A stretch of DNA of 64,000 nt from an uncultured Chloroflexia bacterium. GTDB lineage: Bacteria; Chloroflexota; Chloroflexia; Thermomicrobiales; JALYUS01. Below are positions 7,377 through 23,183 of the stretch, piece by piece (the stretch's first letter is position 1; the number at the start of each line of letters is the position of its first letter). The stretch is from NCBI GenBank assembly GCA_963847195.1, contig CAWJZC010000014.1, positions 6,133 through 70,132 of the forward strand, in the 5' to 3' direction. A program made the position numbers and the translations under genes. Under the pieces are notes generated by a model. That model was not told where the DNA came from, ran no database searches, and worked only from the letters and a program-made list of their open reading frames with translations.

Positions 7377-7431
7377 TGCCCTCCTCGTACCGTGCGCGGG
7401 CGCTCCCGTACGAGGCATTGGCCTGCGCTCG

Positions 7432-9605
7432 TTATCGGCCTTGCGGTTGCGGCGGGTGAACAGGCAGAGATCGGCGCGCCCGGCGGCGAGCAGGGTGTTC
7501 GCCTGCCCGGTCGTCGTCGTGTAGGCGGTCGCGAGCGTCGGGATACCCGCCTCGTTGCGGATGATGTCGCTGTACCCGGCGAACGCCTCGAAATCGTAGA
7601 CAGGGTGCGCGGCAATCGTCGTCTGCCCGGCATGGGCGGCGATCAGGTCGCAGCCGTGCTCCTTCAGCGTGCGGGCAATCGCGACCGCGTCCGCGCATGT
7701 CGTTGCCGCCCTTCGCCCAATCGGTCGCGGAGAGGGCGACGGCGAGCGGCTTCTCGGCGGGCCAGACGGCGCGGACGGCATCGAAGACGGCGAGCGGGAA
7801 GCGCAGACGGTTTTCCAACGGGCCGCCGTACTCGTCCTCGCGCCGGTTCGTCAGCGGCGAGAGGAAACCGGCGAGCAGGTAGCCGTGCGCCATGTTCAGA
7901 TGCAGCAAGTCGAAACCGGCCTCCGCGCCGCGACGCGCCGCCGCGACGAACGCCGCGCAGACCTGCTCCATCTCGGCGCACTCCATCGCGCGGGGCGTCT
8001 GATTGGCGCGGCTGTAGGGGATGGCGGAGGCGGCGATGAGCGGCCAGTTCCCGTCGCGGAGCGGCCTGTCGAGCCCTTCCGTGCGCGGCCGCGTCGAACC
8101 GCGCCGCCCGGCATGGTTGAGATGCAGCGCGATCTTCGCAGGCGTTTCGGCATGAACCGCCGCGACGATCCGCTGCCCAGGCATCCGCGTGGCCCGATTC
8201 GTAGAGCCCAACATCCCCCGGCGTAATCCGCCCGTCCGCCGTGACCGCGACCGGTTCGGTGACGACGAGCCCCGCGCCGCCGCTTGCGCGCGACAGGATC
8301 GTCGCCGCGTGACGTTCGTTCGGCAGGCCGTCCGTCGCGTCATAGGCCGACGACGGGCGCGAAGACGGCGCGGTTTGCCAGCGTCATATCCCGCAAGCGG
8401 AGCGGCGTGAAGACGGCGGGGGGCGAGACGAGCGCGGGAGCGGGCGGAACATCGCCGTTCGCTTCCCGCGCGGCGGTCTGGAACCAGCGGTCGACGCCGC
8501 CGATGAAGCACGGGGTCGCGCTGCCGGAGGCTGTCGTAGGTGATCCGACCGCTGCGGGTGAGCAGATTGACGGCGAACTGCATCGGCGCGAGGTGGCCGT
8601 ACCGCGCGACATTCTCGAAATAGCGCTGGCTCTCCGCCGCCGCCCGCTGGACCGATTCGACGCGCGGCTTGCGACCGAGCGCATAGACGCGGAGGGCGGT
8701 CGGCACATCGCGCGTGCTGCTCGAAGGCCGTCGCGAGGGCGATGGCGTCCTCCATCGCCAGTTTCGTCCCGGAGCCGATCGAGAAGTGGGCGGTGTGCGC
8801 CGCGTCGCCGAGCAGGACGATATTCTCGTGCGACCAGCGCGCGTGCCGGAGCGTGAGGAACTTCAGCCAGTGCGAGCGGTTCGAGCGGAGACGGCGCCCG
8901 CCGAGGTGGTCGGCGAATAATGCCTCGCAGAAGGCGACGCTCGCCGCCTCGTCCGTCTCGGTCAGGCCCGCGCGCTGCCACGTCTCCTCCGTACACTCCA
9001 CGATGAAGGTGCCCATCGTCGCGTCGAAGGGGTAGGCGTGGACCTGGAAGAGGCCGTGCTCGCTCTCTTTGAAGATGAAGGTGAAGGCATCGTAGAGCTT
9101 GTCCGTGCCGAACCAGATGAAGCGCGTCGCGCCCTGCGCGCGTCTGCGGCCGGAAGGCGTCGGCGTGCCGCTGGCGCGTCAGGCTGTTCACGCCATCCGC
9201 CGCGATCAGCAGGTCGGCGTCGGCGCGGAGCGTATCCGGGTCGTCGATCACCGTCTCGAAATGGAGATCGACGCCGAGGGCGATGCACCGCCGCTGGAGG
9301 ATGTCGAGCAGATGGCGGCGCGCGATGCCCGCGAAGGCGTGCCCCTCGCAGCGGATCACTTCGCCCTTGACATGGACATCAATCGCGTCCCAGAGGACGA
9401 AGGCGTCGGTGATCTCCCGGTAGGTCGTCGGGTCCGCCTCGCGTAGCGCGGTCAGCGTCCGGTCTGAGAAGACGACGCCCCAGCCGTACGTCGCGCCCGC
9501 CGGATTCCGCTCGAAGAGGGCAATCTCCCACGCAGGATGCCCCTGCTTGAGCAGCAGACTCGCATACAGCCCCGCCGGCCCGCCCCCGAGCACCCGCACC
9601 TTCAT
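7432..9605 (-). CDS. Bifunctional FAD monooxygenase / Old-Yellow-Enzyme-like reductase of the salicylyl-CoA 5-hydroxylase / 2-aminobenzoyl-CoA monooxygenase-reductase type (at least 5 frame breaks)
   Basis: N-terminus MKVRVLGGGPAGLY (GxGxxG), then LIAADGVNS and LLGDAAHTAHFSIGSGTKLAMEDA. OYE-like part: FTPLRLRDMTLANRAV, LHLNHAGRRGS, FDLLHLNMAHGYLLAGFLSPLTNRREDEYGG, GRADLCLF. The pieces lie in all three minus frames, with breaks near 9150, 8705, 8515, 8345 and 7700. The 3' end is uncertain. Confidence 0.75.
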
Positions 9606-9630
9606 CAGCGTGCCACCGGAGAAACCGTTT

Positions 9631-9772
9631 GAACCACAGAGACACAGAGCGCACAGAGAAAGACAAAGAGATTATGATGAGACCGTGGCGTGAGCATCGG
9701 CTGAAACGTACGTATCTCTCATTCTCTCTTCTTCTCCGTGTCTCCTCTGTGCCCTCTGTGTCTCTGTGGTTC
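9631..9772. repeat. Stuttered-arm palindromic repeat element (copy A1)
   Basis: The left arm GAACCACAGAGACACAGAGCGCACAGAGAAAGACAAAGAG (9631..9670) is mirrored imperfectly by ..CTCTGTGCCCTCTGTGTCTCTGTGGTTC, which ends at 9772. The outer terminus CCGGCTTCATCC (9777..9788) contains the TGA stop of the LLM gene. Confidence 0.8.
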
Positions 9773-9782
9773 ATATCCGGCT

Positions 9783-10626
9783 TCATCCTAAGACATCAGC
9801 GAGGCGGTCGAGTTGGTCGAGGTGCGCGGTGGTCGGGAAGAGGACGAGGTGATCGCAGCCCGCCTCGGCGTAGCCACGGATGAACTGGGCGATCGATTGC
9901 GGCGTGGTCAGCAGCCCGGCGGCGATCCGCTCGGCGAAGGGGCCGGCGAAGGCGTAGTAATCGAGCAGGTAGCGCGTGCCCGCCTCCGCTTCCGTCGCAC
10001 CGAGGGCGTAGTAGCCCATCGCCCAGAGACGTGGACGGCCCGGTCTGCCCGCGTCGGTCCAGGCGGCGCGCGCCTTGTCGGCGGCGGCGGCGAAGGCGCG
10101 GGGTGGGCCGCCGCCGTGGATGTAGCCGTCCGCATAGCGGGCGGCGCGGGCGTACGCGCTATCGCTCAGGCCACCGACGAGTAGTTCCGGCCCGCCTGGC
10201 TGCACGGGGCACGGGCCGACGTGTTTCGTCTTCCCACTGGGTGCGCAGCGCTGCCAGTTGCTCGCTCAGACGGCGACCTCGCGCGTGGTAGTCAACCCCA
10301 GCGGCATCGTAGTCGTCCTTCCGTGCGCCGAGGGCGACGCCGAGCGTCAGGCGGCCATTGGAGAGCGCGTCGATAGTCGCCGCCGCCTTGGCGAGCAGCG
10401 CGTCGTTCTGCACCGGGCCGATCATCACCGTCGTCGCGAGGCGGATGCGCGTCGTCAGTCCGGCGGCCATCGCCAGCGTCGCGAGGGCGTCGTAACTGTT
10501 GTAGACAAGCCGGTCGAAGACGCCGAGGCTGGCGAACGGCCCCCGGTCCGCCCGGCACGCCCACTCGCGGAGCAGATCGCCCGTCGCCCCCTTCAGCGTA
10601 TTCGGCAGCCCAATCCCGACATCCAT
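9783..10626 (-). CDS. LLM-class (luciferase-like) flavin/F420-dependent oxidoreductase (one frame break near 10200)
   Basis: MDVGIGLPNTLKGATGDLLREWA..LATLAMAAGLTTRIRLATTVM..LSNGRLTLGVALG, then in another frame ..GGPELLVGGLSDSAYARAARYADGYI..CDHLVLFP. Confidence 0.8.
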
Positions 10627-10640
10627 TACTTACTCCTTTT

Positions 10641-10784
10641 GAAGCCGGGGAGAACCGCAAAGAGCGCAAAGAACGCAGAGGTCGCAAAGAACTTACAACG
10701 GGATGACAAATTCGATCTCTCTCATCTCTTCTCTCTCTTTGCGTTCTCTGTGTCCTTTGCGTCTTTGCGGTTCTCCCCGGCTTC
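10641..10784. repeat. Stuttered-arm palindromic repeat element (copy A2)
   Basis: GAAGCCGGGGAGAACCGCAAAGAGCGCAAAGAACGCAGAG .. CTCTTTGCGTTCTCTGTGTCCTTTGCGTCTTTGCGGTTCTCCCCGGCTTC. The terminus CCGGCTTCATCC (10777..10788) contains the TGA stop of the ligase gene. Confidence 0.8.
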
Positions 10785-12423
10785 ATCCCGCAGCTTTCCG
10801 GAGGCGGAAGCGTTGCAGTTTGCCGGTCTCCGTGTACGGCAGGGCGGTGACGAATTCGACGGCGCGCGGGTACTTGTAGGGTGCGATCTCCGCCTTGACG
10901 AAGTCTTGCAGTTCGGTGACCGTCTCCGGCGTCGCGTCCGCCGGGTCGCGCAAGACGACGAAGGCGGTGACGAGCTGGCCGCGCGCCGCGTCCGGCAGGC
11001 CGACGACGGCGCATTCCTGCACCTTCGGGTGCTCGCGCAGGACGTTCTCGACCTCCGGCCCGGCGATGTTGTAGCCGGAAGAGATGATCATGTCATCCGC
11101 GCGGGCCTGATACCAGAAGTAACCGTCCGCGTCCATCCGGTACATATCGCCGGTGAGGTTCCAGCCATCGCGGACGTATGCCCGTTGCCGCTCGGGGTCG
11201 GCAAGGTAGCGGCAGCCGGTCGGGCCGCGCACGGCGAGTCGCCCCACCGTGCCGGGCGGCAGTTCGTTGCCGTCATCGTCCATGATGCGCGCCGCGTAGC
11301 CCGGTACCGGCTTGCCCGTCGCGCCGGGGCGGATGTCGTCACCGGCGGCGGAGATGAAGATGTGCAGCATCTCCGTCGCGCCGATACCGTCGATCAGTTT
11401 GATGCCTGTCGCCTCCTGCCACGCGTGATAGGTAGCGAGGGGCAACGTTTCGCCCGCCGATACGCAGGCGCGCAGCCCGCGGAGGTCATACTCCCGCACC
11501 ATGCCGCAGAGGCGGCGGTACATCGTCGGCGCGGTGAAGAGCGTCGTGACCCGGTACTGCTGGATCGCGTCGAGGAGGCCGGTCGGGCTCGGCTGCTCAA
11601 TCAGTACGGTCGAAGCGCCTACCCGGAAAGGGAAAAGGACCAGTCCGCCGAGCGCGAAGGTGAACCCGAGCGGCGGCGTGCCGCAGAAAACGTCGTCCGC
11701 GCCCGGTTGGAGGATGTGCTGGGAGAAGCAGTCACAGATCGCCAGCACGTCGCGATGGAAGTGCATCGTCCCCTTCGCCTGCCCGGTCGAGCCGGAGGTG
11801 AAGGCGATCAGCGCCACGTCGTCGCTCGCGGTGTCGTTATTCTCGAAGCTATCGGGTTTGCCCGCACTGAGGGCTTCCAGCGTGTCGGGGTGATCGCCGG
11901 CGTGGTAGCAACAGACGCGCGGGGCGAGGCCGCTCTCGCCCCGCGCGACCTGCTCCGTGGCCGCGTGCAGCTCCTCCGCGAACCGGCCGTCGCAGAGCGC
12001 GACCGTGACGCGCGCCTTGGTCATCACGTAGGTGAGCTCCCGCGTGCGCAGTAAGGGCATCGTTGTCACGGCAATCGCGCCCGCCTTGAGGACGGCGAAC
12101 CAGCAGGCGACCAGCATCGGGTTGTTCGGGCCGCGCAGCAGCACGCGATTACCGGGCTCGACGCCGAGGTCTTCCGCGAGTACATGCGCGATGCGGTTCG
12201 CGGTTGCCAGCAGTTCGCCGTAGGTGATGGTGCGCCCATCGAAATGGAGGGCGGGGCGGTCGCCACCCGCGCCCTCCGCCATCGCGTCGAGCAATGCGGC
12301 GGCGCAGTTCAGCCGAGCCGGGTACGTCAGTGGCGAGTCGAATACCGGCCAGTCGGCGCGGGGCGGCAAATTATCGCGCGCGAAGGTATCGACGTGGCCG
12401 GTTCGCCCGAACTCCTCTGCCAT
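10783..12423 (-). CDS. Aryl-CoA ligase (benzoate / 2-aminobenzoate-CoA ligase family, AMP-forming)
   Basis: MAEEFGRTGHVDTFARDNLPP.. after GGGAGGGG. AMP-binding motif IAFTSGSTGQAKGTMH, plus GYNIAGPEVE and LPYTETGKLQRFRLR. The frame is uninterrupted. Confidence 0.88.
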   Translation of the reverse strand: MAEEFGRTGHVDTFARDNLPPRADWPVFDSPLTYPARLNCAAALLDAMAEGAGGDRPALHFDGRTITYGELLATANRIAHVLAEDLGVEPGNRVLLRGPNNPMLVACWFAVLKAGAIAVTTMPLLRTRELTYVMTKARVTVALCDGRFAEELHAATEQVARGESGLAPRVCCYHAGDHPDTLEALSAGKPDSFENNDTASDDVALIAFTSGSTGQAKGTMHFHRDVLAICDCFSQHILQPGADDVFCGTPPLGFTFALGGLVLFPFRVGASTVLIEQPSPTGLLDAIQQYRVTTLFTAPTMYRRLCGMVREYDLRGLRACVSAGETLPLATYHAWQEATGIKLIDGIGATEMLHIFISAAGDDIRPGATGKPVPGYAARIMDDDGNELPPGTVGRLAVRGPTGCRYLADPERQRAYVRDGWNLTGDMYRMDADGYFWYQARADDMIISSGYNIAGPEVENVLREHPKVQECAVVGLPDAARGQLVTAFVVLRDPADATPETVTELQDFVKAEIAPYKYPRAVEFVTALPYTETGKLQRFRLRKAAG

Positions 12424-12605
12424 TCCCCCGCCCCTCCCGCGTCCGCGATCCGCAGCCTGAACGATAGTGCATCCGTATCCGTCCGCGCACATGCCCCGTG
12501 CGACGAGCATCTTCACCTTCATTCGTGACCGCGCTATCGTGCGTCACTTCGCGGATTTGTTCAACACCCTTCCCATCGCGGTCGGTTTGGCGGATGATAC
12601 GGGGT

Positions 12606-12728
12606 GCCCACCCCCTGCCCCCTCCCGACACGGGAGCGGGAACCCATGTCGGGCGCACAGGCTTAGCGGACAAGCCATGGCACGATCGATGAACTCCCCT
12701 CCCGACGCGGGATGGGCAGGGGGTGGGC
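12606..12728. repeat. GC-rich nested inverted repeat in the ligase/RidA divergent intergenic region
   Basis: GCCCACCCCCTGCCC (12606..12620) is the exact reverse complement of GGGCAGGGGGTGGGC (12714..12728). The inner hairpins CTCCCGACACGGGAG and TCCCGACGCGGGA are direct copies of one another. Confidence 0.7.
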
Positions 12729-12745
12729 TCACCGGAGGATCGCCG

Positions 12746-13147
12746 ATGGAAACCTTGCAACCGCCCAACTGGGTGCAACCGCGCGGCTACGCAAATGGCA
12801 TCCTCGCGGAGGGGCGCGTCGTCTTTGTCGCCGGGCAAATCGGCTGGAATGGCGACTGCGTGTTCGAGACGGACGATTTCGCCGCGCAGGTGCGGCAGGC
12901 GCTCGCCAATGTCGTCGCGGTGCTCGCCGAGGCGGGCGGCACTCCAGGCGACATCGCGCGGATGACGTGGTACCTCACCGACAAGCGGGAGTACCGCGCC
13001 GCGCTCAGAGAAGTTGGCCGCGCCTACCGGGACGTGATCGGCGCGCACTACCCGGCGATGACGCTCGTGCAGGTCGCCGCCCTCCTCGAAGACCGCGCCA
13101 AGGTCGAGATCGAAGCGACGGCCGTACTGCCCTCCACAACGCAATAG
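12746..13147 (+). CDS. RidA/YjgF family reactive-intermediate deaminase
   Basis: METLQPPNWVQPRGYANGILAEGRVVFVAGQIGW..ARMTWYLTD..YPAMTLVQVAALLEDRAKVEIEATAVL. GGAGGA precedes the ATG. Confidence 0.9.
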   Translation: METLQPPNWVQPRGYANGILAEGRVVFVAGQIGWNGDCVFETDDFAAQVRQALANVVAVLAEAGGTPGDIARMTWYLTDKREYRAALREVGRAYRDVIGAHYPAMTLVQVAALLEDRAKVEIEATAVLPSTTQ

Positions 13148-13163
13148 GGAAGGGATCAAATCC

Positions 13164-13355
13164 CCAGGGACACCAAGAACACCAAGAAATGCTCGGTATC
13201 CTCAGCGTGTTGGGGTGTGCGCACATGAATATGGCTTTCCCTGGCGGTAGCAGGCAGAGAGCCTGCTTGTCCGTCCTGAGAGGTCAGGCTCACTGCCTGC
13301 TGCCGCCGATGCGATTTCGCCGGAACCCGCTCCGGTCTTCTTGGTGTCCTGGTGG
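13164..13355. repeat. Stuttered-arm palindromic repeat element (copy A3) between the convergent RidA and helicase genes
   Basis: CCAGGGACACCAAGAACACCAAGAA (13164..13188) pairs with GGTCTTCTTGGTGTCCTGGTGG (13334..13355). Inner hairpin AGCAGGCAGAGAGCCTGCT. The right arm abuts the TAA stop at 13356..13358. Confidence 0.7.
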
Positions 13356-16300
13356 TTATCCTTCTGCCGTTGGCACGTTGCCGAAGACGCGTACCTGCTT
13401 GCCGTGCAGCGTCCCCGACCAGAGGGGGACGGTGCAGGTGCGTTCCAGCAGGTGCTTCCAGAGTTGCGCGTGCGCGAATGTCTCCTCATCCGCGCTGAAG
13501 AGGGTGAAGACGGATTCCGAGGCGACGAGGATCATCTTCTGCTTGGCGCGGCTGAGGGCGACGGTCAGGCGGCGGGGATCGAGCAGGAACTTGCCGGACG
13601 CCATCAGGTAGGCGCGGTCGCTCTCCGTCGCGCCGACGAGGATCGCCGTCCGCTCGCCGCCCTGGAAGCGTTCGACGGTATCGACCGATGAGACGACGAT
13701 CGCGCCCGTCCGCTGATCGCGCGTACTAAGGCAGGGGATCTCCTCGCGCAAGGCGGCGCGCTGCGCCCGGTGCGGCACGACGACGCCGAGGCCGTCCACC
13801 GGCCCCAACCCATAGGGCGGCGCGGCGAGCGCTTCGAGGATCGGCGTAATCAGTTGCTGCTCGAAGGGGTTGCGTAACTGGCTCCGCGCCTCATCGTGGA
13901 CGATCACCACCATCGCGTGATCCGGCGCGAGCACGCGGGCGACGAAACCGTCCGGGTCCTCCCACGCCGCGTTCGATGCCAGCAGGGTGTGGTTGTGGGA
14001 GAAGAAGGGGATGCCGTCCTGCGCGTAGATCTCCTCCTTGAGGAAGGTGGCCATATCCGCGTGCAGCCGGAAACTCTCGGTGAACTTAATCATCTCCGGG
14101 ACGTGCGGCAGGAAGGCGAGGAAGAGCGATTCATAGGTGCGATACGCCTTGAACGTCCGGCGCGGCTCGTGCTCCCAGTCGTGTTTGACGATTGGCGGCA
14201 TCTGGCGATGATCGCCGACAATGATTAACTGCCCGTCGCGGTTGAGGAGGAGCGCCGCCATGATCGCCTCGGGCAGGTTCATCTGCGACGCTTCATCGAG
14301 GACGAGGCAGTCGCACCCGCCATGGCCGAGCATCTCCTTGCCCCAGCGATCCTTGACGATGCGGTAGACGCCACCGGGCGTCGCCGCGACGATGCACCAC
14401 GGCTGCGCCTCGATCGCGTCGGCGGCGCGCGGCGTGCCCTTCGGTCGCTCGGTATCGCGCGGCAGCGGGATGACGCCATCGGGGGGCGCCTCGCGCGGCG
14501 TCGTGCGGAAGAGCGGCACATCGAGCAGGCGCGCGTCGAAGTACCGCGCGAAGATCGCCGGGTGGCGTGCCGCGATGTCGCCCAACGTCTCCCGGACGAG
14601 GAGGATATCGCCCAGCAGGACGTTCGTCGCCGCATGGGTCTTGCAGGAGACGAAGGCGCGGAAGGGCCGGGCAGCCGCCATCGCTCCTTGCAGGCGCGCA
14701 AAGAGGGCGAAGGCGGTCGAGTAACTCTTGCCGGTGCCCGGCGGCCCTTGCACGAGCAGTGTCGGCAGATCGCCGCACGCGCCGATGAACCGCCGCTTGC
14801 CCTCCTCAAAGTCGTGGAACGCCCCCGCCGCATGGAGCGCGTCGAGTCCGGCGAGGAAGCGCGCCTGCCCCTCGCGCGCGGCCTCGGGCCAGGTGGCATA
14901 TGCGGCGGCGGGCGCGTCAAGGCGCTCGTAGAGTGTATTCGCCCCGCCCGCGCACAATTCCTGCACGATGCTGGCGCAGAAGGAGCCGTACCAGTCGTTC
15001 GGGTCCGCATCGAGCGTGTAGCATTCACCGTCGCGCAGCGGCCGCTCGAAGGAGGAGAAGGCGAAACCGGGGACGGCACTCTTGGCCCCCGGTCCGCGCA
15101 TCTCAACGACGATGACGTGATCGTTCGCATTGATTTCGACGATTGTCGCGCGGGTGCCGTAGAGCATCTGCTTCGGCGTCGGCGTGAAAGGCGTCCGCTC
15201 CGCCTCCGGCAGCCGCTCATCGACGGTCAGGCGCGGGAAGATGACGACGCTGTCGCCCGCGCGGAGCGAGGTGAGCGCGAGTGCTTCGTCGAGCGAGCAA
15301 TCGAGGCCATCGGCGACCAGTCCGAGCCGGAACCGGAGACCCTGCTGCGACCATTTCGTCTCTTTGCGCTGCTCTTTCGAGAGTTCTGCTCGTGCCGCGC
15401 CGGGGTTGGCGCGGAGGTAGTCCGCCCCGTATCTTGCCGCTTTCTCGGACTGCTCGACGTTCGCGGCATTGGCGGCGGCGACCTCCGGCGATTGCGCGCT
15501 CGCCCGGTAGCGGACGAGCAGCGTCTCACCCGTCAGGGCACGCCGCTCCGGCGGGGCGAGGCGCGCCGCCTTCCACGCGCCGAGCTCGACGTGCCGCTCG
15601 ATCATCACGAACTCGTCGATGGCGTGCGCGCGGGAACGCGCCGTCTCGGAGAATTGCGCGAGGTCCGGCAGGTCGAAGGGGCGTTTCTCGGTCTGTTTGT
15701 TCCCTTTGAACTGCTTGGCGACGTGCTCCATCGCCTCCAACCGACGCCCCTGGAAGCCGCGCAGATCGTCCGTCGTCACGGCGCGGTAGGGAGCGAATTC
15801 ATCCCGCGTGCCCGGCGATGGCGGCGCCAGTTCCCCCCATGCCGCGTAGGCATATTCGAGCGGGATGCGGCTATTGAAGCGCGCCCGCCGTGTATACCAG
15901 CGCGCCGTCTCGTCGTCCGGCTCGAGTTTGCCGCGCGCATCGAAGAGGCGCTCACGGAAGAGGTCGCGGTACGGCGTCCCGGCGTTCCAATCGAAGCGGG
16001 TGATGGACGCGACCGCCTGCAACGACTGGCAGACGATCGGGTAGTTCTTCAACTCGCGAATCTCCCGATCGAGATGCGTGGCAATCGGCGAGTCGAAGGC
16101 GGCGATCTGGGTGACGAAATCGTAGCAGGGCGTCGCCCCGAAGATCGCGCCGAGGTGCCGCGCCAGACCGTCCAGGAGGAGCCGCTGCTCCTGGCTGTCG
16201 TTGAAGATGAGGTGAATTGGCGCGCGCATCGCACCATCGGCGTCCGGCGCGGCGACGGCGACGAGCGCTTGCAGAGTCTCGGCGATCCAGCGGAGGAAGA

Positions 16301-17720
16301 GCGCTTCCTCCTTGGCGGTCGTGTCCGGCGGCCCGTCCGTCAGGTGGATGATGCTCCGGCGCCGCCCGGGGACTTCCTCTCCCCGCTCGCAGGCGACGAC
16401 GAGCGCGCCGATCAGGTAGATGCGGTCGTGCAGGTAATCGTGCTGCGCGTCGATGTAGACGCGGATCAGGTTCGGGTTCTGCGCGGCGTCCGCGTAGGGG
16501 AGCGATCCGTACCCCTTGCTCGGGATGTATCCGAGGGCGGCGAGTGGATCGCCCTGCGAGCGACGATAGCCCCGCGCCCGGTGGATCAATTCGTCCACGC
16601 GCGGGCCGACGGGCCAGGTGGCGGCCAGTCGCGTGGCGAGCGCCTCCTTGCCCGGCGCTGCGACCAGTTCGCTCAGATGGGAGGGTATATCCGCCGCCGC
16701 CGGTTCCTTCACGGTGGCGAGATCGCGGACGGTCGCGATCCCCGCGCCGAGCAGCGCGCTCTTGTCGTTCGGGGTCAGGTGGGGGAGGAGCGAGAGGTCG
16801 TCCCGCTCGACGCTCCGCTTCATGCAGAACTCGTTGTAGAGGCAGCCGTCGCATTTGGCGTTGAGGTGGAAAGGGATGGTATCGAAGGACGCCGCGATGA
16901 CGCGCCGCGCCGTCGAACTCGGCCCGGTGACGAGGTCGTGGACCGAGCGGCGATAGTCGGCGGCGTTCGCGATGATTTCCAGCAGGCCGACATCGCCGCC
17001 GAACGAGTGACGTGCGGCGACCTGTTGTGCGGCTGCCTCAGGCGATGCATCGCCGCCGTCTGCCGGGCCGCGATAGAGCACAGCGATCTCGATCTTCTCG
17101 CAGGCGATGCCATCGGCGGCGAAGAGCGCGTCGAGCATTTCGGCATAGAAGGCGACTTGGAGGCGGTGCTCGACCTTCGCGCTCGTCGAACTTTTCATGT
17201 CGGCGATCATCACGCGCAGGGTGTCGCCCGCGTCCCGCTCCAGGCGGAGGATGTCCACGTCGCCGCGAATCTGCCAGCCATCCAGCGCGACCGTGAGGCG
17301 CGGCTGGAAGAGGACGCGCACGCTCCCGGCGGGGAGCGCGGCTGCCTCGGCGATCACCGCCGCGTTGTTTTCCGGCCGGGCGCCGGAACCGCCGTGCTCC
17401 ACCGCGAAGTCGCGCGTCGCATGGCGCGCGGCGATCACCGCCGTGACATGCTGCTCGAATGTCGCGCCGGAACGGGTGAGCAGCGGGGTGACGGAGACGG
17501 GCGCGACGCTGTACTGGCGCAGGAAGTTCGCGTTCACGCCCCGCTCGTGCAGCCGGAGGCGTAGGTATCGCTCGCATTGTTCGAGGCGGATGAACTGGGA
17601 GATGTCCGTCGGGGAGAGGCGCAACGTCCCATCGGGCCGTTCCGCCGAAAATTCGTCAGTCATCCCACGCTCCATTTCCCCAGAAATCATCTGATAGTCA
17701 TGCCGGAGGCCTGCCTCCAC
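13356..17720 (-). CDS. Giant fusion protein (1454 aa from the GTG at 17720; an ATG at 17663 with a GGAG is an alternative start). It combines a Cas4/RecB-type PD-(D/E)XK Fe-S nuclease, an HhH, an RNase-H-like segment, about 390 unassigned residues and an SF1 Upf1/Dna2-like helicase.
   Basis: Nuclease: C49, GDVD (aa 153-156), IADMK (172-176), QVAFY (188-192), CDGCLYNEFC (290-299). HhH: LTPNDKSALLGAGIATVRDL. RNase-H-like: NLIRVYIDAQHDYLHDRIYLIGALVV. Helicase: Walker A QGPPGTGKS (991-999, nt 14724..14750), Walker B LVLDEASQ (nt 14283..14306), IIVGDHRQMPP, VDTVERFQGGERTAILV, RRLTVALSRAKQKMILV. There is no frame break in 4.3 kb. Confidence 0.85.
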   Translation of the reverse strand: MEAGLRHDYQMISGEMERGMTDEFSAERPDGTLRLSPTDISQFIRLEQCERYLRLRLHERGVNANFLRQYSVAPVSVTPLLTRSGATFEQHVTAVIAARHATRDFAVEHGGSGARPENNAAVIAEAAALPAGSVRVLFQPRLTVALDGWQIRGDVDILRLERDAGDTLRVMIADMKSSTSAKVEHRLQVAFYAEMLDALFAADGIACEKIEIAVLYRGPADGGDASPEAAAQQVAARHSFGGDVGLLEIIANAADYRRSVHDLVTGPSSTARRVIAASFDTIPFHLNAKCDGCLYNEFCMKRSVERDDLSLLPHLTPNDKSALLGAGIATVRDLATVKEPAAADIPSHLSELVAAPGKEALATRLAATWPVGPRVDELIHRARGYRRSQGDPLAALGYIPSKGYGSLPYADAAQNPNLIRVYIDAQHDYLHDRIYLIGALVVACERGEEVPGRRRSIIHLTDGPPDTTAKEEALFLRWIAETLQALVAVAAPDADGAMRAPIHLIFNDSQEQRLLLDGLARHLGAIFGATPCYDFVTQIAAFDSPIATHLDREIRELKNYPIVCQSLQAVASITRFDWNAGTPYRDLFRERLFDARGKLEPDDETARWYTRRARFNSRIPLEYAYAAWGELAPPSPGTRDEFAPYRAVTTDDLRGFQGRRLEAMEHVAKQFKGNKQTEKRPFDLPDLAQFSETARSRAHAIDEFVMIERHVELGAWKAARLAPPERRALTGETLLVRYRASAQSPEVAAANAANVEQSEKAARYGADYLRANPGAARAELSKEQRKETKWSQQGLRFRLGLVADGLDCSLDEALALTSLRAGDSVVIFPRLTVDERLPEAERTPFTPTPKQMLYGTRATIVEINANDHVIVVEMRGPGAKSAVPGFAFSSFERPLRDGECYTLDADPNDWYGSFCASIVQELCAGGANTLYERLDAPAAAYATWPEAAREGQARFLAGLDALHAAGAFHDFEEGKRRFIGACGDLPTLLVQGPPGTGKSYSTAFALFARLQGAMAAARPFRAFVSCKTHAATNVLLGDILLVRETLGDIAARHPAIFARYFDARLLDVPLFRTTPREAPPDGVIPLPRDTERPKGTPRAADAIEAQPWCIVAATPGGVYRIVKDRWGKEMLGHGGCDCLVLDEASQMNLPEAIMAALLLNRDGQLIIVGDHRQMPPIVKHDWEHEPRRTFKAYRTYESLFLAFLPHVPEMIKFTESFRLHADMATFLKEEIYAQDGIPFFSHNHTLLASNAAWEDPDGFVARVLAPDHAMVVIVHDEARSQLRNPFEQQLITPILEALAAPPYGLGPVDGLGVVVPHRAQRAALREEIPCLSTRDQRTGAIVVSSVDTVERFQGGERTAILVGATESDRAYLMASGKFLLDPRRLTVALSRAKQKMILVASESVFTLFSADEETFAHAQLWKHLLERTCTVPLWSGTLHGKQVRVFGNVPTAEG

Positions 17721-17757
17721 TATGACAGGGCTCTACTGTGTTGAACGGTGCGTATCA

Positions 17758-18693
17758 TCAGAACGTGACAGGCTCGTTTCCACTGGTGTGCCGACGGAAG
17801 AGCGTCATGTGGAGAATGACACCCCGATCGACGAGCGCCGCGCCCGCGATGCCGCCCCCGCTGAAGCGAACGTCATGCCCGCTGCCCGGCGACGAGAAGG
17901 TTTCCATCTTCGCCTCGCGGATGCGGCGCGCCATGCGGATGGCGCGCTCCTTCGCAACGGAGGGCGCGGCGGGAGCTCGGAGCGCGTCTAGCGCGGCGGC
18001 CCGTACGAATGTCCGCCAGAGCGCGGCCATCGTCTTGGGCGCGTCGAAAAGTTCGAGGCCGGTGACGCGCCCGCCGATCGCCGTCACCATGCCGACCGCG
18101 CCATCCGGGTAGGGAATGGCGCGCTCGAAGGAGGCGAGATCGTCCCCCCTCCGGTCGTAGAGATCGGCCATCGCCCCGGTCGGCGAGAGGATCGCTTCCG
18201 CGGTCTGTCGCTCCGCGATATTTGCCCAGATTGCGCTCTGATCGCTCCTGTGCGTGCCGCTCTGCCGCAATGACGCAGCGACCTGCATCGCGGTCTCCGC
18301 CCGGAGTGCGGGGTAGAGCGCGTCGTGCGACGCGAAGCCGGCCTGCGGCACGGACCAGCGCGCCTGCTCTACACAGGAGACCGGCAGCACCGTCATCCCC
18401 GGCGGGACGAGTACGGTGCTATTAATGATCCGATTCTGCTTGCCGCCGACCAATTCCTGACCATTAACGATCATGACGGGCAGGGTGCCGGTATTCCGTG
18501 CCATCAGCGTGCCGACGCTCGCACGCTCCATCTCGGCGATGTGTAGCGTCTTCTTCGCCGCCGCATCGGTCAGGAGTGTGTACGCGAGATAGCCGTGACG
18601 CACGCCGCTGAGCGGGAAGATGGTCAGCGCCTCGTGCGTCAGCGCGTCCTCGACCCAGAGTGCGTCGCAGCGTTGTGTGAATAGATTGCTCAT
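17758..18693 (-). CDS. Conserved hypothetical protein (311 aa), first gene of the helicase operon; reminiscent of the DUF6569 / ARPP-1-like family
   Basis: ATG at 18693 after GAGGGGGA. N-terminal half: LTIFPL..YLAYTLLTDAAAKKTLHIAEM..VMIVNGQELVGGKQNRIINSTVLVPPG..LPVSCVEQARW. C-terminal half: GAVGMVTAIGGRVTGLELFDAPKTMAALW. No catalytic motif recognised. The family call is memory only. The gene ends 37 nt before the helicase ORF. Confidence 0.6.
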   Translation of the reverse strand: MSNLFTQRCDALWVEDALTHEALTIFPLSGVRHGYLAYTLLTDAAAKKTLHIAEMERASVGTLMARNTGTLPVMIVNGQELVGGKQNRIINSTVLVPPGMTVLPVSCVEQARWSVPQAGFASHDALYPALRAETAMQVAASLRQSGTHRSDQSAIWANIAERQTAEAILSPTGAMADLYDRRGDDLASFERAIPYPDGAVGMVTAIGGRVTGLELFDAPKTMAALWRTFVRAAALDALRAPAAPSVAKERAIRMARRIREAKMETFSSPGSGHDVRFSGGGIAGAALVDRGVILHMTLFRRHTSGNEPVTF

Positions 18694-18839
18694 GGCTTCC
18701 CCCTCGGTATCTGCCGGTGCGCCGCTTATTCGCGCTGTATCCCACAGTAACAGCACTCACCGGACGAGGATGCGTCCACTTTCATTCCTCTGGTACACTG
18801 AGCTACGCGAATGCGCTGACACCGGAAGGACGATGCAAG

Positions 18840-19886
18840 ATGGGCGTGGAGGGCGAACGTCCGGAGGTGACGGCGGAGCAGCGCTCGCTGGCGATGCTCG
18901 TCGCGCTTCATCTGCACCCGACCGGGCTGCGGCGGGCCGAACTGATCGGCGAGGTGCGGCGTCTCCTCGCCGAGCCGGAACTCTATCTCGGCCAGCGCGA
19001 CGCGGCGGGGGAGACGCGCGAGCGACCGCTGGAGGAGCGCACGATCCATCGCGATCTCGTCCGCGTGCGCGACTGGCTCGGCACGAAACCGTGGCCCGAC
19101 ATCGCCGTGACGGATGAGCACGCCGGGCGGGAGCGGCGGTACCGTCTGGCGCAGGGGCTTGTGCCCGGCTTCGTCCTCACCGACGGCGACCGCGACGCGT
19201 TGCGCGAGATTTTCCAGCACCTCTGCGGCGCGAAGGCGGGGACGCGGTCGATTGTCCTGCCTTTCGTCCAAAAGGTCGCGGGCGAAATGCTCGCCGTGGA
19301 CACCGGAGATGTCCTGCCGCCCGATGTGATGGGGTATCTGACCCAGGAGCAACGGGACGCGCTCGCCGTCATCGTGCGCGCCAAGCAGCGGCAGCAGGGG
19401 ATCGCCTTCGCCTATACGGCGGGGAGCGGCACGAAGCGATACGTCGCGTGGCCGATTGAGATTTCATGGTTCGGGACGCGCGTCTACATTGCCGCGCGCA
19501 AGGACGATCAGCAGTTCCGCGTCTTCCGGCTTGATCGCTTCCTGCCTCGACCGGATCAATCCGCCCGGCATCTCCTCGTCCAGCCGACCGGGAGGAGCGC
19601 GCCGTTCGGACTCAGCCTCCCGTCACGCCCGTTCCGGTTGCGCGTGCGCGGCAATCTCGTGCCCTTCTTCCGGGACACCGCCGTCTTCTTTGATCAAGCA
19701 GTCGCGCCCGAGGAGGACGGATCGCTGATCGTCACGGGGACGTATCGCTCCGACGTTCTCCTCGCGAACAACGTACTCCGGTACGGCGCCGCCGTCGAGT
19801 TGTTGGAACCCAGGCGGGTCCGTACACTGATTACGGAAGAGGTCGCGGCTCTCACGCGCCTCTATGCCGGGGAACCGGCCGGATAG
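18840..19886 (+). CDS. wHTH-WYL-type transcriptional regulator (BrxR/CapW-like architecture)
   Basis: N-terminal wHTH-like LAMLVALHLHPTGLRRAELIGEV..TIHRDLVRVRDWLG. WYL-like core IAFAYTAGSGTKRYVAWPIEISWFGTRVYIAARKDDQQFRVFRLDRF (about nt 19386..19559). C-terminal extension ..VLRYGAAVELLEPRRVR. It is divergent from the helicase operon. Confidence 0.75.
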   Translation: MGVEGERPEVTAEQRSLAMLVALHLHPTGLRRAELIGEVRRLLAEPELYLGQRDAAGETRERPLEERTIHRDLVRVRDWLGTKPWPDIAVTDEHAGRERRYRLAQGLVPGFVLTDGDRDALREIFQHLCGAKAGTRSIVLPFVQKVAGEMLAVDTGDVLPPDVMGYLTQEQRDALAVIVRAKQRQQGIAFAYTAGSGTKRYVAWPIEISWFGTRVYIAARKDDQQFRVFRLDRFLPRPDQSARHLLVQPTGRSAPFGLSLPSRPFRLRVRGNLVPFFRDTAVFFDQAVAPEEDGSLIVTGTYRSDVLLANNVLRYGAAVELLEPRRVRTLITEEVAALTRLYAGEPAG

Positions 19887-19977
19887 CGGCAACTGCCCCG
19901 ATGCGCTCTCAGCCTTCCGCCAGATAGCGCAGCGCGACGGCAGCGTGCATAGTGGGTTGTCGACGATGGAGGGCGGC

Positions 19978-20379
19978 TTATGATGCGTCAGCGTCCGCCG
20001 CATTGGCGCGCTGCGAGACGATGAAGTCATGGACCGCTGCCCAGTCTACCTGCGTCAAGGACCAGTCGACGAATGCCTTGATATCGCCAAGTTCCGGGGG
20101 GGCGAACTGCGTGGCGTATTTCGTCAGGTCCTCGCGCAGCCAGCGGAGGTTGCCATCCCGCTTCACCCGCTTGTCGAGGTACTCCTGCATCTCGGTCAGT
20201 TCGTCCGGCGACACCTGCTCGCCCGCGTCGCTGCGCGCATCGGTCGTGTCGTCCACCCATGCCCGGACGGCACCCTTGGTGTGCATCTCCGCGATCTCGT
20301 CGGGGGCATCGGTGAGCCAGTCGACAATCATGCGGGTCGGTGTCAGTTCCTGTCCGATTGTTTCTGTCGTGGCGCCCAT
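19978..20379 (-). CDS. Acidic hypothetical protein (133 aa)
   Basis: MGATTETIGQELTPTRMIVDWLTDAPDEIAEMH.. preceded by GGAGCAGGAGAGGGAGCAG. It is strongly D/E-rich and no family was recognised. An ATG at 20400 is an alternative start. Confidence 0.5.
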   Translation of the reverse strand: MGATTETIGQELTPTRMIVDWLTDAPDEIAEMHTKGAVRAWVDDTTDARSDAGEQVSPDELTEMQEYLDKRVKRDGNLRWLREDLTKYATQFAPPELGDIKAFVDWSLTQVDWAAVHDFIVSQRANAADADAS

Positions 20380-20500
20380 CTGCTCCCTCTCCTGCTCCAT
20401 TCCTGCCCGCCGCCAATGCACATTGCGTGCCGCCGCGCGGTCGTGCTGCTCGCGAGAGCGAATCGTATGCCGCCATTCTCGGTATAGCGGAGCGCGGCGG

Positions 20501-20529
20501 TTGACACCGCGATCATCGACGGGCAAGAT
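20501..20529 (+). promoter_or_regulatory. Weak promoter candidate TTGACA-N17-CAAGAT upstream of the ABC-2 permease
   Basis: TTGACA at 20501..20506, a 17-nt spacer, then CAAGAT at 20524..20529, about 50 nt upstream of the ATG at 20579. Confidence 0.3.
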
Positions 20530-20578
20530 ACCCGGCGATACTGGAGGGTCGGCACGCACCGTTGATGGGGGACAGAGG

Positions 20579-21434
20579 ATGGCAGAAACGATCGCAAAAC
20601 CGCAGCCGCGCACGCCGGTGTATTCGAGCATTTCGAGTGCCGGTTTGCTCGGGCGGCTGCGCACGCTCTTCGAGCGCCGCGATCTCATCTGGGAGCTGAC
20701 CGCCCGCAACCTCAAGGTCCGCTACCGCCGCTCGGTCTTCGGCTTTCTCTGGGCGATCCTCAACCCGCTGCTCAATGCCCTCGTCTTCGGGTTCGTCTTC
20801 GGCGTCTTGCTCAAGTCCCCGATTGACCGGTTCGTGCTCTTTGTGCTTGATCGGATTTATGGCCTGGGGCGCGTTCGCCGCGTCCGTGCTGGAATCGATG
20901 GCAGTCATTACCGGGTCGTCCGCCCTGGTCACGCGCGTGCGCTTCCCGCATGAGGTGCTGCCGATTTCCACGGTACTCGCGAATATGATCAACCTCGTGC
21001 TGGCGGCGCTGCCGAGCATCTTCGTCGTCATGGCGATCACGCATTCGCCGTTGCACCCGCAGTTGATCTTGTTCCCCCTGGTGCTGATCTGTCTCTTCGC
21101 CTTCTCGCTCGGTGTCGGCTTCATGTCGGCGGCGGCGAATGTCTTCTTCCGCGACACGCGCAACTTCCTCGACGTGGTGATCAGCCTCTGGTTCTTCCTC
21201 ACGCCGATTATTTACAACCTCGACGCCGTGTTCGTCACGCCGAGGTTGCAGCGGCTGGTGTACTGGCTCAACCCGATGGCCTCGATCATCACCCTGCTGC
21301 GCCACATGTTCTACACCGGCTACTGGGACGCCCCCAGCTTCTTCCTGCGCACGACGGTCGCCTGCTTCGCGGTGCTGATCGCGGGCTGGGTCTTCTTCGT
21401 CAAACTCTCCGAGCGATTCGTCGAGGAGCTGTAA
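20579..21434 (+). CDS. ABC-2 type exporter permease (Wzm/TagG-like), one frame break near 20840
   Basis: LIWELTARNLKVRYRRSVFGFLWAILNPLLNALVFGFVFGVLLK, then in another frame ..FMAWGAFAASVLE..VRFPHEVLPISTVLANMINL..NVFFRDTRNFLDVVISLWFFLTPIIY. No ATPase gene is adjacent. Confidence 0.8.
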
Positions 21435-21450
21435 GGCCCTGGTCGATCGG

Positions 21451-21903
21451 ATGGCTACGCCGCTCCGCTATCGCCTCATACTGCTCCCGGTGATGGACGC
21501 GACGGAAGGGCCGGAAGCCGCCGGACATGCCGCCGCGCTCGGTCGCGCCACCGGCGCGACGGTGGCGATCCTCGGCGTGATCGATACGAGCGCGGGCTTC
21601 CAGTTCAGCGCGGAGGGTCTGGCGCGGTACGACCGGCTGCGCGCCGAGACGCAGGGAGCGATCGAGGCGGCGAGCGCGGTCGTGCGCGGCATCGGTGCGG
21701 CGCGGGTCGAGCACCTGATCATGGACGGCACACCGTGCGAGGCAATTATCGAGGTGGCGGACGAACAAGACGCGGGCCTGATCGTCCTCGGTGCGGGCCG
21801 TGCTATGCTTGACGATACATCGCCTGAGAGTCTTGTTGCGCATGTGCTCCGCCATGCTCGCTGCCCGGTCGTGATCGTTCCCGCAGAAAGGAAGAGCCCG
21901 TGA
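21451..21903 (+). CDS. Universal stress protein (UspA family)
   Basis: ILLPVMDATEGPEAAGHAAAL..EAIIEVADEQDAGLIVLGAGR..SLVAHVLRHARCPVVIV. Confidence 0.85.
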   Translation: MATPLRYRLILLPVMDATEGPEAAGHAAALGRATGATVAILGVIDTSAGFQFSAEGLARYDRLRAETQGAIEAASAVVRGIGAARVEHLIMDGTPCEAIIEVADEQDAGLIVLGAGRAMLDDTSPESLVAHVLRHARCPVVIVPAERKSP

Positions 21904-23183
21904 TGGACACCAGCCGCGATGAGGCGCGACGCCGCGACGCCGCCGACCCCCTCGCGTCGTATCGCGACCGCTTCTACACGCAGCCCGGCACGATCTACCT
22001 GGACGGCAACTCGCTCGGCCTCCTCTCGCGCGATGCGGAACGGACGCTGCTGCGCGTCCTGGAGGAGTGGAAGACGCTCGGCATCGAGGCGTGGCTGAAC
22101 GCCGACCCGCCCTGGTTCACGCTCACCGAAGAACTTGGCGCGCTCATGGCCCCGCTCGTCGGCGCGGAGTCGGACGAGGTCGTCGTCACCGCCAGCACGA
22201 CCGTCAATCTGCACACCCTCGCCGCTACCTTCTATTGTCCGACACCCGCGCGGCGGAAGATCGTCGCAACGTCGCTGGACTTTCCCTCGGACATCTACGC
22301 CCTGCAGAGCCAGATTCGTCTGCACGGCGGCGATCCGGTCAGCGATCTTGTGATCGTCGAGAGCCGGGATGGGCGGCTGGTCGAGGAGGACGACATCATC
22401 GCCGCGATGACGAGCGAGGCGGCGATGGCCATTCTGCCCGCCGTCTTCTACCGGAGCGGCCAGTTGCTCGACATCGCGCGCCTGACCGCCGCCGCCCACG
22501 AACGCGGCGTGCTGATCGGTATCGACGGCTGCCACTCCGTCGGCCTCGTGCCGCACCAGTTCGATCGTTGGGGCGTTGATTTTGCCTTCTGGTGCACCTA
22601 CAAATACTTGAACAGTGGCCCCGGCGGGACGGCGGGCTTGTACGTCAATCGCCGGCATTTCGGCGTCGTGCCCGGCATGGCGGGGTGGTGGGGCAGCGAT
22701 AAGTCGACCCAATTTGACATGCTGCACACCTTCACCGGCGCGGGGAACGCGGGCGCGTGGCAGATCGGCACGCCGCCCTTACTCAGCACCGCGCCGCTGC
22801 ACGGCTCATTGCTGATGTTCGCCGAGGTGGGCATCGAGAATGTCCGCGCCGCGTCTCTCGCTCGCACGGACTATTTGATCGCGCTGATCGAGGCGATGGG
22901 TCTCACGGGGGCGCCCTACCACTACGGCATCGGCACCCCGCGCGACCATGCCCGGCGCGGCGGTCACGTCGCCGTCGAGCACGCGGAGGGGACGCGGATC
23001 GCGAAGGCGCTCAAAGTGAAGGGCGTCATCCCGGACTTCCGCCCGCCGAACATCGTTCGCCTCGCCCCTATCGCCCTCTACACCTCATACGAGGAGTGCT
23101 GGCAGGCCGCGCAGCACCTCAAAGCGATCATCGACGAGCGCGCCTACGAGGCATTCGTGATCGGGCGCGAATTGGTGGCGTAA
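21903..23183 (+). CDS. kynU: Kynureninase
   Basis: DPLASYRDRFYTQPGTIYLDGNSLGL.., FAFWCTYKYLNSGPGGTAGLYV (PLP-lysine region), PDFRPPNIVRLAPIALYTSYEE. The ATG overlaps the usp stop (TGATG). Confidence 0.9.
   Translation: MDTSRDEARRRDAADPLASYRDRFYTQPGTIYLDGNSLGLLSRDAERTLLRVLEEWKTLGIEAWLNADPPWFTLTEELGALMAPLVGAESDEVVVTASTTVNLHTLAATFYCPTPARRKIVATSLDFPSDIYALQSQIRLHGGDPVSDLVIVESRDGRLVEEDDIIAAMTSEAAMAILPAVFYRSGQLLDIARLTAAAHERGVLIGIDGCHSVGLVPHQFDRWGVDFAFWCTYKYLNSGPGGTAGLYVNRRHFGVVPGMAGWWGSDKSTQFDMLHTFTGAGNAGAWQIGTPPLLSTAPLHGSLLMFAEVGIENVRAASLARTDYLIALIEAMGLTGAPYHYGIGTPRDHARRGGHVAVEHAEGTRIAKALKVKGVIPDFRPPNIVRLAPIALYTSYEECWQAAQHLKAIIDERAYEAFVIGRELVA

Follow-up and report, generated by a model that had tools for sequence, protein, structure and literature searches.

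The window analysed here is a stretch of 64,000 nucleotides of the contig CAWJZC010000014.1 from an uncultured Chloroflexia bacterium (assembly GCA_963847195.1, positions 6,133 to 70,132), and the gene in question lies at 17758..18693 on its minus strand. It was found that this gene encodes a full and intact member of the ARPP-1/DUF6569 family (hereafter ARPP), as judged by the family's own sequence criteria. The gene stands between a divergent gene for a WYL-type transcription regulator and a co-oriented gene for a large Dna2-like nuclease-helicase. The reading that I favor, and consider fairly likely, is that of a WYL-switched ARPP cassette which is probably co-transcribed with an interchangeable DNA-processing enzyme and probably acts on sugar or ADP-ribose-type lesions. 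Comparison with related loci indicates that the ARPP-helicase pair is a real, selected arrangement in one branch of Chloroflexota. The same comparisons indicate that the helicase does not need ARPP, that ARPP does not need this helicase, and that the regulator is the commonest partner of ARPP.

The original prediction, an annotation made from the letters of the window, had described a gene of 311 codons with its own Shine-Dalgarno sequence and had suggested a resemblance to the DUF6569/ARPP-1 family. Gene, length and ribosome-binding site were borne out, on the minus strand, and the suggested family was right. According to the translation, the ATG start codon is at 18693 and the TGA stop codon at 17760..17758, and the Shine-Dalgarno sequence GAGGGGGA (18698..18705, minus strand) can be read 4 nt before the ATG. 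The GC content at third codon positions is 0.81, as usual for coding DNA in a window of 67% GC. A maximal open reading frame (ORF) of 332 codons from GTG 18756 was rejected as the gene because the homologues align from ATG 18693 (MSNLFTQR or MGNLFTQR) and thus start at the same methionine as the 311-residue form. In a Pfam search, the protein matched PF20208 (ARPP-1) with E=1.9e-75 and 254.4 bits (gathering cut-off 27), residues 14-299 covering profile positions 4-297 of 297, and its relatives carry the NCBI name "DUF6569 family protein". No PADLOC or NCBIfam model matched it. The family is very large: when 1.84 billion representative proteins were searched with a profile, a limit of E<=0.001 gave 13,123 clusters (50% identity), and a limit of E<=1e-10 gave 9,698.

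The four sequence blocks quoted in the original prediction, LTIFPL, VMIVNGQELVGGKQNRIINSTVLVPPG, LPVSCVEQARW and GMVTAIGGRVTGLELFDAPKTMAALW, are all present in the translation. It had stated at the same time that the protein has no recognizable catalytic motif, which is not accurate. An alignment of 30 diverse ARPP members has 14 invariant columns. The window's protein keeps all 14 columns that are 100% conserved in 232 members, namely G78, G83, Q86, R88, P104, V105, C107, E109, R112, W113, Q152, W156, G201 and G272. Invariant residues fall within the quoted blocks, in GGKQNR and PVSCVEQARW, so that the blocks hold the invariant Cys/Glu/Arg/Trp/Gln set of the family, complete in this protein. 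Thus, the window's ARPP is intact by the criteria of its family. It is probably active.

An AlphaFold2 model of the protein (pLDDT 93.4, pTM 0.91) consists of a beta-rich N-lobe (1-125), a helical linker (128-192) and an alpha/beta C-lobe (201-300), in agreement with the earlier description of a two-lobed protein. The N-lobe of the model carries the motif, including residues 54-113, and the helical linker carries DQxxxW. As far as its lobes go, the model is compatible with the published description of the ARPP fold, a beta-rich core with an inserted beta domain bearing the conserved residues (PMC9503650). A Foldseek search of the model against the PDB and BFVD returned nothing at E<=0.001, and the ARPP profile matched no PDB sequence. 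As modeled, ARPP is therefore an orphan fold, one without a solved relative among these PDB and BFVD searches.

The WYL regulator gene, with Pfam WYL and WCX domains, lies at 18840..19886 on the plus strand, divergent from the ARPP gene. Its probable start is ATG 18840, the ORF being open from GTG 18717. The best PDB sequence match of the regulator is PafC, and it is weak (E=6e-4). Orthologous regulators adjoin ARPP in three other loci (L082, L083 and L133) and in the contig of a further homologue, P0013. In the 146-bp control region between the WYL and ARPP genes, a nested dyad (18743..18800, no strand) lies about 70-77 nt from each start codon. No other part of this region is as well conserved when it is aligned with its counterparts in L082 and L083. 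The inner dyad GGACG-N6-CGTCC (18762..18777) sits within an imperfect 11-nt outer dyad, CACAGTAACAG / CTGGTACACTG. Although the inner dyad is single copy in the window, it is statistically not rare, 33 of 100 shuffles also giving at least one match, so that the case for an operator rests on conservation and not on rarity. I regard the nested dyad as a candidate WYL operator. When the control region was compared informally, by eye, with the PafBC-type promoter motif, no convincing match was seen.

Passages of PMC11804915, PMC9186387 and PMC11662680 describe WYL regulators of the PafBC, DriD and CapW types as responding to single-stranded DNA (ssDNA), and WYL repressors of the CapW/BrxR type as controlling defense operons. 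The window's regulator shares their WYL+WCX architecture and adjoins its presumed targets, with the dyad in the common control region. It differs in that its match to PafC is weak and in that its mode, ligand and site are predicted. The closest WYL gene in a genome of the same family (L131 7330-8376, contig C23 of G264; 70% nucleotide identity) lies between lepA and two ABC exporter genes, without ARPP. Since this copy stands without ARPP, the WYL lineage of the window is not tied to ARPP.

Is the neighborhood of the window common for ARPP genes? I sampled 80 ARPP loci from species-representative genomes, 35 of them with full context. With an iterated hidden Markov model (HMM), a WYL regulator was found within 3 kb in 28 of the 80 loci, or in 14 of the 35 with full flanks, which makes it the most frequent ARPP partner in the sample. 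Among annotated neighbors, WYL accounts for 19 of 109 immediate and 7 of 109 second neighbors, and regulators of the NrtR type stand in for WYL at L123 and L138. The iterated HMM was needed for the WYL genes; a tblastn search with the helicase and the WYL regulator of the window gave no matches in the 80 loci. Since none of these loci gave a match to the window's helicase, the link to a Dna2-like helicase is not family-wide. The original prediction had presented ARPP as a helicase partner. This holds in so far as the pair recurs in six other loci of one branch, and fails in so far as WYL is the usual partner and none of the 80 loci has a helicase of this type.

Helicases of other types do occur near ARPP. 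At 8 of the 80 loci, a superfamily 1 (SF1) helicase is no more than 5 kb away, compared with about 1 expected from the helicase density of the window's genome, a rough figure because the background is a single genome and some of the loci are kin. Most ARPP genes have no helicase nearby. The helicases include AddA/AdnB-like UvrD proteins with a PD-(D/E)XK domain (L005, L006, where they occur twice, L031, L032 and L068) and UvrD accompanied by a UDG-like gene (L055 and L067); a UDG-like gene was also found in L122. In the cultured Desulfofundulus australicus DSM 11792 (L047 10001-18167), ARPP, a protein with OB-fold and HD domains, a WYL regulator and a 1502-residue AAA_11/12 helicase with a C-terminal MTES_1575 restriction endonuclease (REase) domain are encoded on the same strand. 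Another cassette (L084 2398-8909, also L085-L087) has on one strand a PolA-like gene (626 codons), a helicase of the NERD+UvrD type (598 codons), an HTH-WYL-WCX regulator, HD_4 and ARPP. Partial copies of it are present in L001 and in L121, the latter keeping the order WYL, a gene of 209 codons, ARPP. The identical ARPP of this cassette type occurs both on contigs assigned to Rubrobacter and on contigs assigned to Chloroflexota, which makes at least one of the two binnings doubtful.

The remaining families near ARPP point in two directions. The 80 loci include Macro (3), DUF4062 (4), UDG (2), ERCC4 (2), DUF2779 (2) and AlkZ-like (1) neighbors, and ARPP is found fused in the forms ARPP-vWA-PARG, ARPP-vWA, ARPP-ARG, DSP phosphatase-ARPP and HIRAN-ARPP. 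On the Pimelobacter simplex plasmid pA-N39 (L139 5860-10207), genes for DUF6569 (ARPP), a small hypothetical protein, ARG and a RecB-like nuclease of the TM0106 family are annotated as an operon. Mobile elements are otherwise poor in ARPP; a search of 50,697 phage records gave no match, and a plasmid search gave three weak ones, indicating that it is rare on plasmids. Two themes thus meet around ARPP in these gene neighborhoods: the removal of ADP-ribose and the processing of DNA ends or lesions. ARPP homologues do co-localize with helicases and nucleases, as the neighborhood analysis proposed with the original prediction was meant to find out, and the family is not a characterized, unrelated enzyme family.

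The helicase gene of the window (13356..17720, minus strand) is a 1454-codon ORF for a Dna2-like protein with an Fe-S PD-(D/E)XK nuclease and an SF1B motor of the Upf1/Dna2 type, assigned from translation, Pfam and PDB match. Its Pfam domains are PDDEXK_1, AAA_11 and AAA_12. The translation contains C49 and C290xxC293x5C299 in an iron-staple pattern, the nuclease motif IADMK, a Walker A motif (GPPGTGKS) and a Walker B motif (LVLDEASQ). The best PDB sequence match is DNA2 (5eaw, E=3.6e-12), and Upf1 is also among the best solved relatives. Like the window's protein, Dna2 combines an iron-staple cysteine cluster, a PD-(D/E)XK nuclease and an SF1B motor of the Upf1/Dna2 type in one polypeptide; the window's protein differs by about 500 extra residues between nuclease and motor. 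No ARPP-like partner of Dna2 is known. A nuclease of the TM0106/DUF2779 type was considered for the N-terminal half and dropped, since only the cysteine-cluster and helix-hairpin-helix (HhH) segment aligns (pairwise E=3e-4), the match of residues 288-347 to NCBIfam TIGR03491 reaching 34 bits against a cut-off of 97. The TM0106-type nuclease of the Pimelobacter plasmid likewise shares with it only the CxxCx5C/HhH segment (27% over 157 residues), and an HMM of the N-terminal half found no neighbors of ARPP of the TM0106/DUF2779 type.

The pair of ARPP and a Dna2-like helicase was found in L082, L083, L133, L134 and L118 (genome G030), and probably in the contig of P0013. Their ARPPs are 84% (L082), 80% (L083), 73% (P0013), 64% (L133), 50% (L118) and 48% (L134) identical to that of the window. 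In L082 and L083 the gene order is likewise WYL, ARPP, helicase, and WYL is transcribed divergently. In the P0013 contig, WYL and ARPP are followed by a co-oriented downstream gene, probably the helicase. L133 has an orthologous WYL regulator (72% identical to that of the window) and the N-terminus of a helicase, and in L134 ARPP is followed by a helicase 58% identical to that of the window over 607 residues. In L118, WYL, ARPP and helicase share a strand, and the gap is 17 nt. The ARPP tree unites five of the six helicase-linked ARPPs (all except that of L134) in one moderately supported clade (84/89, below the threshold of the tool), which also holds two members without helicase (L002 and L135). 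The NERD/HD-linked ARPPs form a separate clade, and all six helicase-linked ARPPs split cleanly from the NERD-helicase group.

In both L082 (9268-13349) and L083 (8980-13316), the helicase gene is split into two ORFs, and the adjoining leucyl-tRNA synthetase gene of L083 is also broken. The latter points to assembly frameshifts and not to real pseudogenes.

If ARPP were a dedicated sensor or specificity subunit that physically binds the nuclease-helicase in one effector complex, as the original prediction had suggested, the helicase should not do without it. The pair is close and co-oriented in the window, it is found again at the six other loci, where ARPP identity falls to about 48-50%, the ARPPs linked to a helicase group together in the tree, and the closest relatives of the window's bacterium (G280, of the same genus, and G264) have neither gene in their genomes, all of which would fit such a complex. 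Against this, full-length helicase orthologues with 45-62% identity were found in 157 of 301 genomes of the class, mostly in single copy, versus ARPP in 9 of 301. No ARPP was found in the other sampled genomes of the window's own order. Among the 29 best helicase orthologue loci, 28 have no ARPP, the exception being L114 of G030 with ARPP upstream. The helicases at the loci without ARPP have about 1436-1593 residues (bar one partial ORF at a contig end) and show no sign of a missing part. Two genomes, G012 and G018, have both genes on different contigs, and the ARPP of G012 sits with WYL and a 209-codon gene presumed to be HD_4 by analogy with L084. Together with the many ARPP genes that have no helicase nearby, these patterns do not support the subunit, and I consider it unlikely. 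They also advise caution: not every small gene that precedes a large helicase gene should be taken to encode its subunit, since the helicase here mostly occurs without ARPP.

The distance between the two genes bears on the opposite possibility, that WYL and ARPP are a self-contained pair, and that the helicase gene serves repair independently, from a promoter of its own, and came to lie downstream by chance in this lineage. The gap of 37 nt given in the original prediction applies to the longest helicase ORF, from GTG 17720, which is indeed co-oriented and downstream. The true start is probably ATG 17663, because it has a GGAG Shine-Dalgarno sequence 6 nt upstream, the orthologues align only from residue 21-35 of the long form on, and the L133 helicase begins at the equivalent methionine (MTEPFAV...LRLSPTDISQ, compared with MTDEFSA...LRLSPTDISQ in the window). 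GTG 17720 is probably unused, and the protein would have about 1435 residues. The spacer from the ARPP stop codon to this start is 94 nt (17664..17757, minus strand), a length that suits an independent gene, as do the two-gene WYL+ARPP neighborhood already described (PMC9503650) and the fact that the helicase mostly stands alone. A chance neighborhood is hard to reconcile with an adjacency that persists at 48-50% ARPP and 55-58% helicase identity and survives a changed type and orientation of the regulator in L118. Nor does it explain why ARPP is enriched near SF1 helicase-nucleases of several unrelated architectures, at the eight loci against about one expected. A scan of the minus strand between ARPP and the helicase found no terminator-like site. 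Chance adjacency therefore seems to me very unlikely.

The WYL-switched cassette would work as follows. The divergent WYL-WCX regulator and ARPP share the 146-bp control region, ARPP being the conserved payload. Because other WYL regulators respond to ssDNA, it is proposed by analogy that this one senses ssDNA or a nucleotide-type signal arising from DNA damage or infection and turns the operon on. The ARPP site, formed by Cys107, Glu109, Arg112, Trp113, Gln86 and Gln152, would bind or act on a sugar-type adduct on nucleic acid, for which ADP-ribose, ribose and an abasic sugar are candidates. The helicase-nuclease would then unwind and degrade the affected strand. It would be a processing enzyme that acts downstream and can be exchanged, rather than a partner bound in an obligate complex. 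Its place in other ARPP cassettes is taken by other helicase-nucleases, HD phosphohydrolases, UDG-like proteins, ARG or PARG.

Several observations weigh against the cassette as just described. The 94-nt spacer could hold a promoter, and the co-transcription of ARPP and helicase is my inference. The L118 regulator is only distantly related to that of the window, so that the regulator is not strictly kept with the pair. The branching of the helicase tree agrees largely with taxonomy, and the two lineages linked to ARPP stand apart in it on a weak backbone. Next to the best helicase orthologues lie, for the most part, unrelated genes of metabolism and transport, and WYL is absent from the families listed there. 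The helicase thus shows the pattern of a chromosomal gene with vertical inheritance and usually stands alone, and its adjacency to ARPP may reflect regulatory convenience and not a shared pathway. An ADP-ribose substrate is extrapolated from other family members, since the module of the window has no ARG, macro or phosphatase gene. The Foldseek searches offer no clue to the chemistry. A literature search on the family found no experimental study of any ARPP protein, the only paper being the computational one (PMC9503650).

That paper, by Iyer, Burroughs, Anantharaman and Aravind (2022, Viruses 14:1977; PMC9503650), defined ARPP computationally as an accessory of ARG-centered systems predicted to counter viral ADP-ribosylation. 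It reported three further two-gene neighborhoods, in which the partner of ARPP is HIRAN, a WYL regulator or a secreted deacetylase. With the ARPP+WYL pair of its section 3.8, the window shares PF20208, the invariant motifs bearing cysteine and glutamine, and the adjacent WYL factor. The window adds the co-oriented 1454-codon gene of the Dna2-like nuclease-helicase, a three-gene form not described there. With the ARG-centered systems, exemplified by the Pimelobacter plasmid operon (ARPP, ARG and a RecB-like nuclease of the TM0106 family), it shares an effector of the REase fold together with a helicase (PDDEXK_1, AAA_11 and AAA_12). It differs from them in having no ARG, macro/PARG, rhodanese-phosphatase or chaperone gene, and its nuclease forms one polypeptide with an SF1B helicase. 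The genes from 6585 to 23183 gave no match to ADP_ribosyl_GH, macro or PARG, and neither a coupled phosphatase (of the rhodanese-phosphatase, calcineurin-like, HD or HAD type) nor a chaperone is encoded in the module or beside it; HD proteins do occur in the related L084 and L047 cassettes. By gene content, the trio of the window is a lineage-specific three-gene variant of the predicted WYL-ARPP cassette and ARG-centered family, without the ARG and phosphatase core, and not a new kind of system. The lack of ARG, phosphatase and chaperone points to DNA rather than protein as the carrier of the substrate in this branch.

As for the chemistry, ARPP was proposed to act on ribose or sugar moieties, possibly through an SRAP-like covalent linkage (PMC9503650). 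In this analogy, the conserved cysteine of SRAP (HMCES/YedK) and that of ARPP are both proposed to link covalently to a DNA sugar. ARPP is likewise tied genomically to proteins that handle DNA ends and lesions (HIRAN, UDG-like proteins and helicase-nucleases). SRAP uses its N-terminal cysteine, compared with the internal Cys107 of ARPP. The two have no sequence or fold relation, and the ARPP chemistry is a proposal.

Could the module be a stripped-down ARG-centered system directed against phages? ARPP would then detect or reverse an ADP-ribose mark made by the phage, and the nuclease-helicase would destroy phage or host DNA in an inducible or abortive response. PMC9503650 places ARPP, REase domains and helicases in ARG-centered conflict systems with WYL or Nudix repressors, and CapW/BrxR-type WYL repressors govern defense operons in the passages cited above. 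The partner modules are variable, ARPP is patchy in the class and in the window's own order, and the module is absent from G280. The helicase core also matches the defense models MkoA, DpdJ, PLuB and Hhe, as well as ProA, weakly; these matches are to the generic SF1 core at 38-99 bits, far under the curated NCBIfam cut-offs of 999-2000, and ARPP itself had no PADLOC match. No other defense genes flank the module, whose neighbors are catabolic and transporter genes. The helicase orthologues lie in non-defense contexts and follow taxonomy, ARG, macro and phosphatase genes are missing from the module, and ARPP is absent from the phage records and rare on plasmids. On balance, an anti-phage role is rather improbable.

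ARPP-1/DUF6569 is a very large family, described by computation, that has a confidently modeled orphan fold and an invariant cysteine-centered site. In the three-gene form, the problem is narrowed to one regulator, one enigmatic enzyme and one recognizable DNA enzyme, so that a clean reconstitution is feasible. Beyond the cassette itself, one may speculate, tentatively and with considerable doubt, that ARPP-1 is the lesion-recognizing or lesion-processing enzyme of a widespread and so far unrecognized pathway, switched by WYL or NrtR regulators, for ADP-ribosylated or sugar-damaged DNA, and passes its product to an end-processing enzyme encoded next to it. If this were true, the Chloroflexota branch would offer a natural minimal system in which to work out what a family of about 13,000 clusters does.

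The module appears to be accessory in the genome. The same-genus genome G280 matches the flanks of the window at 81-83% identity, on separate contigs (C49, C20 and C149), and has no DNA match to the 7.5 kb at 13132..20677 that hold the helicase, ARPP, WYL and an acidic ORF. Since the flanks are on different contigs, G280 shows absence only and not a clean insertion site. The acidic ORF (133 codons, 19978..20379) was rejected as a part of the module; in L083, a 77%-identical homologue adjoins an ABC-2 permease gene, and an M20 peptidase gene lies between it and WYL. By this gene order, it belongs with the transporter.

The other neighbors of the module in the window are genes for a crotonase, a luciferase-like monooxygenase, an aryl-CoA ligase, RidA, an ABC-2 permease, Usp and kynureninase. 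The monooxygenase gene (9783-10626) is broken up into two ORFs that overlap, 9783..10205 and 10159..10626, and align to successive stretches of the Pfam profile; a frameshift or a fault of the assembly may account for this. Short segments of about 30-70 nt within 9618-9784, 10719-10773 and 12607-12644 match dozens of places in G280, on many contigs and both strands. They look like a dispersed family of REP-like palindromic repeats placed just past gene ends.

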